Below, in pieces: positions 51,432 through 54,665 of a DNA stretch of 64,000 nucleotides; position 1 is the stretch's first letter; each line of letters opens with the position of its first letter. The notes beneath the pieces were generated by a model. It saw nothing but the letters and a program-made list of their open reading frames with translations. It had not been told where the DNA came from and ran no database searches. The DNA comes from Escherichia phage ECO103 4-12-1. A program made the translations under genes and the position numbers. The stretch lies in the sequence record OR844650; one strand, written 5' to 3'.

Positions 51432-52664
51432 TTACTTATACCATTGCATTTCTCTAATATCAATGATAATTTTTGATGCTAACTTGATGTTTGGTTTTTT
51501 AGGAAGTACTGATTTCTTATATAGAACATCACGAATGTATTGTACTTTATCATCGAAATATTCTAATACTTCTTCATACTTCCATTTACCATTACGAATA
51601 TCCATCAACATTTGTGCATCTGGTCGTTTAACTTGAATAATTCCACTTTGTAATGCTTCTTCTGCACTATTCAAAAGTCGGATTGTGTGCATAGCATGTT
51701 TACAATCGTATCCGTGTTGTGATTCTAAAATAGCACGTTTGGCATTACGATTTTCTTTCCATTTATGATAACTTTTCCTATTCTCACTATTTTCCTGATA
51801 TTCTTTTTCGTTAAATTTGACAATTAGTTCTGGTTTGGTTTTCAACTCTTCAGTACTACGCTCTTTAGAAAAATAACGCAATGATCCATCACCGTTGATA
51901 GTGCTTTCATTCGGATTTTTAATAATCGCAAAAATGTTTTCTCCGTAATGAATTAGTTCATAACCATTATTAAAATTCAATAAATTGAAATCACGATCAA
52001 GAATTTTTTCAGTAGTGTAGTTATGCACTAATCTTACGAAATGATATTGCTTTAATGGATTTTTCGAAACTAACTGTAATGATGTATCACGCATATATTT
52101 TTCAAAATCAATCTTTTTAGCATTAAATGGATGTAAGTTGGATGTATCTAAACGTTCAACAAGATACTGTGGGAATGAATCATACATCCACGCAAGAACC
52201 TCATCGGCAGGGTGTTCTTCTAAAATCTCATTTAATCGTTTTTCAGCAATACGCTCTTTATCCATCCAACCGTGATGATTTGTCATACGCTTAATCTGAT
52301 TATATGCATATCCAGTATATGAAAATGCAATCTTAGAACTAAGAAGTTTTTGGTTAAATGAACGAAGATAGTCATAAATCTCAGTACTTTCCACAATGTG
52401 TTCAGGTTCAACCCAAAGTGATTCAAGAATATTAGGGTTAGCTTCAGTGTATAATTTTAAATACTGATTCAACTCATAGAATTTAGTATCTTCTTCGCTT
52501 TTGTCAGCTACCTCTTTGACCTTATAGAAGGGTGTAAGAATAAATTCTTTATTAGCAAGAAAAATACCACGATAATCAGTATCACTTTCCGGTGTACTGG
52601 TTCCGTAGGCTTGTGACCCAGCCAAGTGTTTCACTATTGTTTGTTCAATATATTGGTTATTCAT
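51432..52664 (-). CDS. Pol-beta-type nucleotidyltransferase (RlaP-like)
   Basis: N-terminal GSQAYGTSTPESDTDYRG fits the G[SG]x9-13DxD nucleotidyltransferase signature; 410 aa. Confidence 0.65.
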   Translation of the reverse strand: MNNQYIEQTIVKHLAGSQAYGTSTPESDTDYRGIFLANKEFILTPFYKVKEVADKSEEDTKFYELNQYLKLYTEANPNILESLWVEPEHIVESTEIYDYLRSFNQKLLSSKIAFSYTGYAYNQIKRMTNHHGWMDKERIAEKRLNEILEEHPADEVLAWMYDSFPQYLVERLDTSNLHPFNAKKIDFEKYMRDTSLQLVSKNPLKQYHFVRLVHNYTTEKILDRDFNLLNFNNGYELIHYGENIFAIIKNPNESTINGDGSLRYFSKERSTEELKTKPELIVKFNEKEYQENSENRKSYHKWKENRNAKRAILESQHGYDCKHAMHTIRLLNSAEEALQSGIIQVKRPDAQMLMDIRNGKWKYEEVLEYFDDKVQYIRDVLYKKSVLPKKPNIKLASKIIIDIREMQWYK

Positions 52665-53062
52665 AGATAAATTGTTAACTCCTTTAAGAAACCATTATAA
52701 TAACGATTAAAGTCATGTTCTAATGTTTTATAATCATCAAAACTAAAACCTAAATTGATAATTGTATCTTCTTGAAAGAAAGTTTCTTCATTCATACATT
52801 CAATAGGTTCGTAATTAATTCCACCTTTGAAAACTTTTGTAAAAAACATTCCATCATTATTAATTTCAACATACATAAAATTATTTTCTGGGTCACGAGG
52901 ACAGACGATATTCAGTGAACTATTTCCACTTGTATTGTACTCATAAGAAATTATATCAAAAGAATCAATACCATAACACTTAGATTTTTCTTTATCGCCA
53001 AATACTTTTCTATCTGTACTCATATTGCGTATAGTGCTATAGATATCATCAACTGTAGTCAT
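52661..53062 (-). CDS. hypothetical protein
   Basis: 133-aa ORF, 4-nt overlap with upstream gene. Confidence 0.5.
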   Translation of the reverse strand: MTTVDDIYSTIRNMSTDRKVFGDKEKSKCYGIDSFDIISYEYNTSGNSSLNIVCPRDPENNFMYVEINNDGMFFTKVFKGGINYEPIECMNEETFFQEDTIINLGFSFDDYKTLEHDFNRYYNGFLKELTIYL

Positions 53063-53064
53063 AG

Positions 53065-53574
53065 TTAACCACCATACTTTGACTTGTATGTTTCAAGTGA
53101 TAAAGATATACGATTTTGCTTTTTAATTCTTTCATCAATATCCTTTGAATTCTTCACACTTCGGTATACGTCAGCTAATAAATTATAATCTTCTTTATTT
53201 GAGCTATGCTGTGCCCAACCTATCTCTGTTTTAATACGAACATTTGCTTTATTTGACGAGTAAAAGAAACTGAATCCATTGGACCCATCAAAAATATCAA
53301 AAGTATCTACCCAATCACCATAAGGAAAGCTCATTGGAACTGACTCATGGTCTATTGTGATATCCGATAAATTTTTTGAACAGTACTTCGCAAAGTGATA
53401 AACGATTGGATCGCATTTTGATAATTCGTATTTGTATTCAATGATAGTTTTTCTATTAGCATCATTGATAGCATATTCTTTTATCAATGGACTTTTTTTG
53501 ATGATAAGAGTCCATAGAAACGATTCTAATCCGGTTTCATCAACTTTTTGTTTCTTTTTGAAAAATGAAATCAT
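53065..53574 (-). CDS. hypothetical protein, tandem paralog family member 1
   Basis: Shares K.SPL.K.....D..R+.+......Y.LSK block with the next two genes. Confidence 0.55.
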   Translation of the reverse strand: MISFFKKKQKVDETGLESFLWTLIIKKSPLIKEYAINDANRKTIIEYKYELSKCDPIVYHFAKYCSKNLSDITIDHESVPMSFPYGDWVDTFDIFDGSNGFSFFYSSNKANVRIKTEIGWAQHSSNKEDYNLLADVYRSVKNSKDIDERIKKQNRISLSLETYKSKYGG

Positions 53575-54092
53575 TTATATAAACCCTTAATTTTCTGTCT
53601 ATTATGTATATCATTTTGCTGGATTTTCAATTTAGTAAGGTTGTTTCTTACACCTTCAACTCCACGCATTATTTGTAACATAATTAGTGATTCGTCATAT
53701 GTTAGGACATTGCTATTATTATCGATATATACTTTCACTCCACTTTCAAGATAATCATTTTCTTTGGAGTTAAAGTTTCTAATAACAAACTTAACGCCAT
53801 TTGATGCATCACTGAAAACATATCGTTCCGCACCGTAGAATGTTTTTCCACGAAATAAACCGCCGTCTTCCCACTTCCAACGACTAGATTCATAATCATT
53901 AACGTAATCAATGATTAAAGAAAGTAAAGGGTGTTTGCTCAATTTATATTTTGCATCTAACAGGATACGTCTATCATTATCTGTGGTGATAATATCCTTT
54001 AGTGAGTAGCTTTTAGATATAATTTTAAAGATAATTTCATGCCAAATTAAAGTACTGTTTTGTTTTCCAACTGATCCAAAAAACATATCCAT
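53571..54092 (-). CDS. hypothetical protein, tandem paralog family member 2
   Basis: Paralog block KSYSLKDIITTDNDRRILLDAKYKLSK. Confidence 0.55.
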   Translation of the reverse strand: MDMFFGSVGKQNSTLIWHEIIFKIISKSYSLKDIITTDNDRRILLDAKYKLSKHPLLSLIIDYVNDYESSRWKWEDGGLFRGKTFYGAERYVFSDASNGVKFVIRNFNSKENDYLESGVKVYIDNNSNVLTYDESLIMLQIMRGVEGVRNNLTKLKIQQNDIHNRQKIKGLYK

Positions 54093-54098
54093 TCCTCA

Positions 54099-54665
54099 TT
54101 AGTATAAATCAGTAATGTCTTTGTATGCATTAATCTGTTTTTGTTGTAATGAAAGTTCATTGAGTTTAGTTACCATCTTATCTACACCAACACGTGTATA
54201 GAAAATAATTAATGAATCTAAATTGCCTAGAGTAATTCTTGAACTGTAAGTTGAAAGTTTTCTTGCATAAACATAAATTTCTTCTTCACTTGGTAAACGT
54301 TTCTCAATCTGCAAGTTTTCCACACCATTCGGCTCATAATCAATCTCGAACTCTACGCCTATCACTGTGTCTTGAATGCGATCCGTATATGAACCACCGT
54401 AAAAATACTCTCTTGGTTTGGCTCTCCAACGAGGACTAAATGGGTCAGATGCATATTCTTTTACAAATTTGTAAAAGGACATTTTACTGAGCATATACTT
54501 CATCTCAATTAGTGCTTTGCGGTCATCATCAGTTTTAAACTCTGCTTTGAGCGATGGACTTTTACACAGTAACTTAACTAAATTGATGTACATCTTTAAT
54601 GTACGTTGTTCTTTCATTTCTTTGATTTTGTGACGTTTTGGTGGCGGTAATAAAGATTTGACCAT
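54099..54665 (-). CDS. hypothetical protein, tandem paralog family member 3
   Basis: Paralog block KSPSLKAEFKTDDDRKALIEMKYMLSK. Confidence 0.55.
   Translation of the reverse strand: MVKSLLPPPKRHKIKEMKEQRTLKMYINLVKLLCKSPSLKAEFKTDDDRKALIEMKYMLSKMSFYKFVKEYASDPFSPRWRAKPREYFYGGSYTDRIQDTVIGVEFEIDYEPNGVENLQIEKRLPSEEEIYVYARKLSTYSSRITLGNLDSLIIFYTRVGVDKMVTKLNELSLQQKQINAYKDITDLY

Follow-up and report, generated by a model that had tools for sequence, protein, structure and literature searches.

A tandem family of orphan proteins encoded beside an RlaP-type nucleotidyltransferase in Escherichia phage ECO103 4-12-1 and related jumbo phages

Most of what is known about RNA-repair modules in phages comes from T4 (Pnk, Rnl). 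To our knowledge, the nucleotidyltransferase RlaP has been characterised biochemically only in a 2025 preprint. RlaP adds one or two nucleoside monophosphates to damaged RNA 3'-OH ends, as shown for Pseudomonas enzymes only, and over-damaged tRNAs, in which nucleotides are missing, depend on it for their restoration; T4 NrdC.11 has been named as an RlaP (PMC12776372). For RlaP and Thg1 of jumbo phages, the predicted role is to counter anticodon-nuclease damage (PMC7824862). Here we analyse a 64,000-nucleotide (nt) stretch of the genome of Escherichia phage ECO103 4-12-1 (OR844650; this whole stretch is called the window below), which contains an operon made of three tandem paralogous genes, a conserved gene of 133 codons and a terminal RlaP-family gene. 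This last gene is what the operon has in common with the bacterial RtcB-RlaP-RtcA system and with T4 NrdC.11, and sister phages add Thg1. Unlike RtcB-RlaP-RtcA, the operon lacks RNA ligase, RtcA and kinase genes, and no RNA ligase was found in the annotations of relatives that cover most of the window. We use the name F0 for the family formed by the three paralogs.

The region from 51000 to 58100 is 99.9% identical to Escherichia phage vB_Eco_slurp01 and 97-99% identical to PBECO4, 121Q, phAPEC6, JP4 and other Asteriusvirus jumbo phages, whose genomes measure about 350 kilobases (kb). All its genes lie on the minus strand and are transcribed in the order fibre A, a 195-amino acid (aa) fibre-related protein, fibre B, P188, P173, P169, P133, the 410-aa nucleotidyltransferase, an acyl carrier protein (ACP)-like gene, two spanins and an HNH endonuclease. 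The paralogs are therefore located upstream of the nucleotidyltransferase and precede it in transcription, the reverse of the order given in an earlier reading of the sequence alone. P188 (188 aa, 54099..54665) occupies slot 1 and opens the operon behind an AGGAGG ribosome-binding site (54671-54676). It is followed by P173 (173 aa, slot 2, 53571..54092), P169 (169 aa, slot 3, 53065..53574), P133 (133 aa, 52661..53062; PHROG 22376), which is conserved and unrelated to F0, and finally the nucleotidyltransferase gene (51432..52664), all of them minus-strand open reading frames. The P173 stop and P169 start overlap by 4 nt, as do the P133 stop and the nucleotidyltransferase start, and the remaining gaps measure 2-6 nt. 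Such tight packing suggests that translation of the operon genes may be coupled.

The proposal of three tandem paralogs, already made in the sequence-only reading, is borne out by significant matches. Along their entire length, P188 and P173 share 29% identity (E=9e-15); the similarity of P169 to each of them lies in the N-terminal block (E=1e-4 and 4e-4). Full-length profile matches were obtained with PHROG 18641 for P188 (E=1.6e-79) and P173 (E=3.1e-85) and with PHROG 7868 for P169 (E=7e-58). These two PHROGs, both without functional annotation, cross-match each other, and P188 matches the hidden Markov model (HMM) of the family with E=8e-46. Once the orthologues from JNE01, A4 and Klebsiella phage Muenster were added, all three paralogs could be aligned from end to end. 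In a 34-sequence alignment, K27, S28, L31, D38, R41, K48, Y49, S52, K53 and D95 are kept in 79-97% of the sequences, and the terminal Tyr of the C-terminal helix is strictly invariant. The shared N-terminal block noticed earlier is thus real, whereas the accompanying statement that the proteins diverge elsewhere was too strong. Averaged over all pairs in the family, identity reaches 33% for the N-block, compared to 17% for the beta middle and 19% for the C-terminal helix.

An HMMER profile search of 1.84 billion representative proteins retrieved 37 F0 clusters at E<=1e-3, with members that are nearly all single-domain and mostly 148-197 aa long; word-indexed homologue searches did not go beyond close relatives. 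Scans of F0 and P133 against Pfam, NCBIfam and PADLOC gave no usable match. The sole match of F0, P133 or the nucleotidyltransferase to PADLOC models was a weak one, DUF2290 to P188 (E=0.009, 13.5 bits), and searches of PDB sequences with the nucleotidyltransferase alone and with the F0 profile returned nothing below E=0.1. No known domain in these four collections accounts for the shared block. Judged from these searches, F0 is a small orphan family confined to 121Q/RaK2/GAP32-like jumbo phages. PHROGs holds two separate unannotated families where we join 18641, 7868 and the Munch gp173-like proteins as one.

Several candidate members were rejected. P0035, a 1,934-aa protein with eukaryote-type CAP/SCP repeats, matched the F0 profile with E=3.7e-6, a match judged to be a false positive because it corresponds to a short 'SKSP...TD.DR..I..LHN' stretch that recurs in each repeat (four times). 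A CAP alpha-beta-alpha sandwich was likewise considered as the fold of F0 and discarded. P133 is not a member (hhalign probability 0.2%), and hhalign showed no relation to F0 for the operon families F2, F5, F6, F9, F11-14 and F21, with only F18 emerging as a divergent member. The T4 genes nrdC.1-.10 and their neighbours (19 genes of the gp55-rI.-1 region) are unrelated to F0 and P133.

A confident AlphaFold2 model of F0 was built from the 34-sequence alignment (predicted local distance difference test score 87.2, predicted template modelling score 0.79). In it, residues 17-65 form four short N-terminal helices, residues 72-123 a sheet of four strands and residues 132-171 one C-terminal helix, 40 residues long. 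The conserved polar cluster K-S..L..D..R..KY.LSK sits in the N-terminal helical block, and the beta-sheet middle is poorly conserved. A search of BFVD found only uncharacterised family members (CMSTMSU, Munch, Yersinia phages fHe-Yen9-03 and -04). As modelled, F0 has an alpha/beta fold without detectable solved relative; calling the fold new needs an experimental structure. Two unannotated PHROGs thereby become a single family that has a clear genomic signature and is modelled with confidence.

The F0 operon has its own promoter, which overlaps the terminator of the preceding fibre operon. A terminator scan located an intrinsic hairpin (54705..54728, minus strand) directly after the fibre B stop codon, with a folding free energy (dG) of -15.4 kcal/mol compared to -3.9 +/- 1.8 for shuffled sequences. 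The sigma70-type promoter TTGACG-17-TATAAT (54688..54716, minus strand) agrees with the consensus at 11 of 12 positions, and its -35 hexamer falls in the loop and 3' arm of the hairpin. TTGAC(A/G) straddles the boundary between the loop and the 3' arm, and is separated by 16-17 nt from the -10 box, which lies past the T-run. Each of the 15 loci inspected has a promoter in this position. Ten of the elements were folded, with dG values between -12.7 and -16.6 kcal/mol, compared to about -3.5 +/- 2 for shuffled sequences. Their stems covary, with at least six different stem sequences that are each still complementary; this was judged by folding each sequence, and column counts were dropped because MAFFT shifted the stem register. 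The overlapping design is common to PBECO4, WPEC5, ph0011, UE-S1, JNE01, A4, Munch, GAP32, fHe-Yen9-03 and four metagenomic relatives, the overlap in GAP32 and fHe-Yen9-03 having been read by eye. These last two phages have a second promoter added in tandem. In Muenster the terminator and promoter are adjacent yet separate. The junction is conserved in at least five genera (equivalent junctions in loci L001, L004, L005, L007-L011, L013, L014, L016, L020 and L021), and so compact an arrangement could help to annotate transcription units in this phage clade.

Sigma70-like sites number 11 in the window compared to 1.8 expected, all on the coding strand. The octamer TATAAATA, a promoter motif of the T4 late type, is strongly avoided, with one copy in 64 kb against 11 +/- 3 expected. 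This sole copy (60809..60816, minus strand) lies just after a terminator, 35 nt upstream of the fibre A start codon. Its avoidance and its position upstream of fibre A fit use as a T4-like late promoter. For phages CBB and GAP32, RpoD-like promoters are predicted to be early, and an ATAAATA motif, together with a gp55-like sigma factor, is predicted for structural and late genes (PMC5259590). From these promoter motifs we infer that the three F0 genes, P133 and RlaP form a pre-late operon read by host sigma70 RNA polymerase, which the hairpin carrying the -35 box would insulate from the late tail-fibre operon. The literature on Asteriusvirus transcriptomics yielded nothing relevant.

We then consider the enzyme that closes the operon. 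The 410-aa nucleotidyltransferase scores 59.2 bits against Pfam RlaP PF10127 (cut-off 23, residues 13-131) and matches PHROG 388, annotated as nucleotidyltransferase, with E=2e-76. The Pol-beta signature (G[SG], about 10 residues, DxD) was read from the translation as HLAGSQAYGTSTPESDTDYRG, of the form GS...DTD. By BLASTP, the protein is 29% identical to T4 NrdC.11 over 154 aa (E=5e-13), with a further C-terminal match (E=3e-4). These matches confirm the earlier RlaP-like assignment and identify the protein as a bona fide RlaP-family member, of predicted activity. P133 shares 59-62% identity with its counterparts in JNE01, A4 and Muenster, and 40% with the one in Munch. It is far more conserved than the paralogs, has no known domain, and may be the real partner of the nucleotidyltransferase.

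In each of the 17 informative loci, the last F0 gene is followed at a distance of 0-4 genes by an RlaP gene; these loci come from Asteriusvirus, Alcyoneusvirus, Mimasvirus, Eneladusvirus, phage Munch and metagenomic relatives. Thg1 directly abuts an F0 gene in contig L012, GAP32 and fHe-Yen9-03, and is one small gene away in L013. Genes for DUF4326, a predicted rhodanese-phosphatase-like enzyme acting on ADP-ribose-linked phosphates (PMC9503650), are often interleaved with F0 loci, and an S1-domain gene follows RlaP in L014. The linkage to the nucleotidyltransferase that had been remarked upon is therefore conserved, within one tight operon in the window; its suggested functional meaning is less secure, as the proximity may reflect shared inheritance only.

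F0 copies were counted with the family HMM. Three are present in every Asteriusvirus examined and in Munch, where one of them is divergent (hhalign probability 90%); Muenster and four metagenomic loci have two, GAP32 and fHe-Yen9-03 four. Copy number thus varies from 2 to 4 across the clade, in support of the sequence-only reading, but is fixed within Asteriusvirus. Best matches define orthologous slots in this genus: P188/A4_186/JNE_180, P173/JNE_172/A4_166 and P169/JNE_166/A4_167. Muenster_163 is a slot-3 orthologue and Muenster_167 is sister to slots 1 and 2, so that the splitting off of slot 3 predates the separation of the genera. By this evidence, the F0 duplications are ancient.

Ratios of nonsynonymous to synonymous substitution rates (dN/dS) were computed by the Nei-Gojobori method between the window and WPEC5, ph0011 and UE-S1. 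They amount to 0.15-0.40 for P188, 0.19-0.21 for P173, 0.07-0.09 for P169, 0.04-0.05 for P133 and 0.03-0.05 for the nucleotidyltransferase. All are below 1 and thus point to purifying selection on the F0 genes, which is about 3- to 8-fold weaker for slots 1 and 2. No region of F0 exceeds 1 either (middle 0.19, N-block 0.12), and positive selection was found neither gene-wide nor by region. F0 alleles nevertheless fall into deep classes: class I in the window, PBECO4, WPEC5, ph0011 and UE-S1, class II in JNE01 and class III in A4. These classes are mutually 27-42% identical, although the nucleotidyltransferases of the same genomes are 74-88% identical. Compared to WPEC5, the synonymous divergence (dS) of the paralogs is 0.07-0.43 between flanks that are saturated (fibre B 1.5, nucleotidyltransferase 2.7), which indicates a recent exchange of the paralog block alone. 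The array can therefore be called diversifying only in the sense of deep, recombining allele classes; the old duplications and the dN/dS values do not agree with recent positive selection.

F0 products have not been detected in virions. Among the 62 proteins of the phAPEC6 virion proteome, the fibres gp314c and gp323c (the latter being fibre A) and the small gp315c are present; gp316c (nucleotidyltransferase), gp318c (P133) and gp319c-321c (the paralogs) are absent. In JP4, fibre A (JP4_233) and fibre B (JP4_235) belong to the 49 proteins detected by liquid chromatography-tandem mass spectrometry of virions, and a sequence search of the supplement found none of the five operon proteins in this set. 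Their absence from both proteomes agrees with the accessory nature that had been proposed and with a non-virion family, and supports a cytoplasmic location of the F0 products.

Our preferred reading, which we hold tentatively, is that F0 proteins are pre-late, non-virion binding or adaptor proteins of a phage operon for tRNA repair and counter-defence. In such a module, RlaP would add nucleotides to damaged RNA 3' ends, and sister phages would also contribute Thg1 (5'-end repair), DUF4326 and S1-domain genes. A ligand or partner common to the F0 proteins would be contacted by the conserved block and the C-terminal helix, and each paralog or allele class would owe its own target, be it a damaged RNA species or a host nuclease, to the variable middle. 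The RlaP, Thg1, DUF4326 and S1 neighbours make a part in counter-defence plausible. A bolder version would make F0 a previously unrecognised protein class with a new fold, providing the target-specific parts of the response to tRNA damage. Its members would direct RlaP or Thg1 to particular cleaved tRNAs or neutralise anticodon nucleases, with slots and allele classes corresponding to different targets. We regard this version as unlikely in its full form. If F0 proteins were specificity or inhibitor subunits of this kind, they would show how jumbo phages fit tRNA repair or nuclease evasion to different hosts, and would add a new fold to the counter-defence repertoire.

The main rival to an adaptor role in RNA repair is that F0 proteins are generic early host-takeover or 'moron'-type proteins acting on an unrelated host process, with RlaP nearby by inheritance only; we consider it doubtful but a serious contender. 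Much of what speaks for it weighs directly against our preferred reading. The whole block from nrdG through fibres, F0, RlaP, ACP and spanin to HNH is syntenic across the clade, so that proximity to RlaP could be inherited gene order and adjacency is weak evidence of shared function. RlaP homologues occur in 635 phage records and F0 in about 40 of them (about 6%), all of this jumbo clade, and T4 has RlaP without F0; F0 is therefore not an obligate RlaP partner. The alleles also recombine independently: A4 and the window share 87% identity in the nucleotidyltransferase and 33-41% in F0, WPEC5 and the window 83% in the nucleotidyltransferase and 92-94% in F0, which argues against tight physical co-adaptation. 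Domain-library scans detected no RNA-binding domain in F0, and no homology or fold match gives a biochemical handle. The F0 proteins are mildly basic (median isoelectric point 8.9) with Lys/Pro-rich N-terminal tails, but values near 9 are common in AT-rich phage proteomes. The early timing is itself deduced from promoter motifs, and both virion proteomes are shallow (49-62 proteins), such that low-copy components could be missed and the non-virion evidence is supportive rather than proof. On the other side, a purely generic role does not readily explain why F0 adjoins Thg1 in L012, GAP32 and fHe-Yen9-03 (and lies one small gene off in L013), why it interleaves with DUF4326, why RlaP follows in all 17 loci though the intervening gene content differs, or why F0, P133 and RlaP are packed behind a single promoter in the window.

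The position of F0 immediately downstream of three fibre-family genes, and the match between three paralogs and three such genes, could instead mean that each F0 protein serves one of the neighbouring tail or hair fibre proteins as a dedicated assembly chaperone or adaptor. Absence from the finished virion would be expected of such proteins, as for many chaperones, and PBECO4-type genomes have fibre genes on both sides of the cassette. A terminator and a separate sigma70 promoter nonetheless intervene, and the fibre operon has the late-type TATAAATA. Fibre and F0 alleles are moreover doubly dissociated: ph0011 and A4 are 89, 90 and 94% identical in fibre A, the 195-aa protein and fibre B and 36, 35 and 42% in F0 slots 1, 2 and 3, while the window and ph0011 are 54, 44 and 51% identical in the fibres and 87, 91 and 96% in F0. 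Mantel tests on six genomes gave no significant correlation of F0 with fibres (rho 0.12-0.26, p>0.12), compared to 0.66 with P133, 0.74 with the nucleotidyltransferase (p=0.04) and 0.85 with the ACP-like gene (p=0.008). Muenster keeps two F0 genes beside unrelated fibres (annotated SP6-, phi92- and P1-like). PBECO4, 121Q, phAPEC6, JP4, JNE01 and A4 have a third fibre pair (PBECO4 gp063/gp064), which is missing from this window, slurp01, ph0011, WPEC5 and UE-S1, yet all these genomes have three F0 paralogs. GAP32 and fHe-Yen9-03 have four copies interleaved with Thg1, and F0 matches neither tail-fibre-assembly Pfam families nor solved chaperones. We therefore find a chaperone role improbable, and the host-range function once suggested for the array loses its footing through the same uncoupling of paralog and fibre alleles. 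Less probable still is that F0 proteins exclude competing phages and owe their allele classes to an arms race with other viruses. Deep classes swapped by recombination, an early-type promoter and absence from virions would suit such proteins; their PADLOC matches do not go beyond the weak DUF2290 hit, they show no membrane or nuclease features, and their neighbours are repair enzymes, not effectors.

The fibre genes upstream of F0 deserve a brief description. Fibre A (898 aa, 58078..60774) is a virion protein detected in phAPEC6 and JP4, the 195-aa fibre-related protein (57479..58066) matches PHROG 26864 with a cross-match to 3573, and fibre B (909 aa counted from the ATG used in relatives, 54733..57462; PHROG 3573), also a virion protein, is the last gene of the late fibre operon. 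All three are on the minus strand and share a C-terminal domain, as indicated by cross-matches among PHROGs 3573, 26864 and 7449 and by similar ...TYRPS...G..W tails. They are therefore a tandem paralog set themselves, and their alleles fall into two or more types that share about 50% identity. Relative to PBECO4, 121Q, phAPEC6 and JP4, the window and slurp01 miss 3,377 base pairs (bp) at about 51339-51348, between the nucleotidyltransferase stop (51432) and the ACP-like start (51246). This stretch carries a 42-aa virion protein and the fibre pair (PBECO4 gp065, gp064 and gp063). Pieces of both ends survive, and about 10 nt match either side of the junction, which marks the difference as a deletion. 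WPEC5, ph0011 and UE-S1 also lack the fibre pair and have spacers of different lengths, which suggests independent events.

Downstream of the nucleotidyltransferase, a perfect sigma70 consensus promoter, TTGACA-17-TATAAT (51291..51319, minus strand), starts the unit of the ACP-like gene (139 aa, 50827..51246, minus strand). This gene matches PHROGs 5934 and 4154, annotated acyl carrier protein, and stays below the Pfam threshold (PP-binding_2, 17.7 bits versus 32). A hairpin with a T-run (51266-51289) lies directly after this promoter, within the would-be 5' leader of the gene; its PBECO4 counterpart is found just past the stop codon of the fibre gene gp063 and could terminate that gene. A second tandem-paralog family, F2, unrelated to F0 and present in 1-3 copies, directly follows RlaP in Muenster, Munch and four metagenomic relatives (L006 10073-10991, L007 10592-11483, L011 4121-5639, L013 8419-9485, L014 11356-12349, L016 12352-13751) and is absent from the window and the other Asteriusvirus genomes examined. 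The two Muenster copies carry C-terminal EDY[DE]CGY. Near 34000-41000 (minus strand), the 121Q annotation places a CCA-adding tRNA nucleotidyltransferase (probably the 370-aa open reading frame at 37579-38691), a Macro-domain protein, a NudE-like Nudix hydrolase, a glutaredoxin and an HPF/RaiA-like ribosome-associated protein. Together they form another group of RNA or ADP-ribose conflict genes, at a distance of about 13 kb from the RlaP operon. No tRNA genes were found in the window by ARAGORN.

Among described systems, the T4 NrdC.11 region shows macro-synteny with the locus. T4 has nrdG, nrdD, ..., nrdC.11 (RlaP), mobD (HNH), ..., rI.-1 (annotated as a 'starvation-inducible' regulator), ..., tk. 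The window has, between 48000 and 64000, nrdD, nrdG, fibres, F0, RlaP, spanins, HNH, ..., a 'starvation-inducible' DNA-binding protein, ..., tk. We know of no description of F0 as an RlaP partner. The F0 and P133 families are absent from bacterial RlaP operons (PMC12776372) and from the 19 T4 genes tested. Tail-fibre chaperones (lambda and Mu Tfa, T4 gp38 and gp57A) are, like F0, encoded by small genes right after fibre genes and are not part of the virion. F0 differs from them by its early-type promoter, its lack of co-variation with fibres and of sequence or fold similarity, and its maintenance beside unrelated fibres, and the comparative data disfavour the tempting annotation of F0 as 'tail-fibre chaperone or host-range' protein. 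A last comparison, made from general knowledge, is with anti-defence and host-takeover clusters (T4 dmd and stp, anti-restriction and anti-CRISPR loci). F0 differs from these in being under purifying, not positive, selection within an allele class, but shares with them small orphan proteins, host-type promoters, tandem paralogs, recombining allelic diversity and a patchy phyletic distribution.

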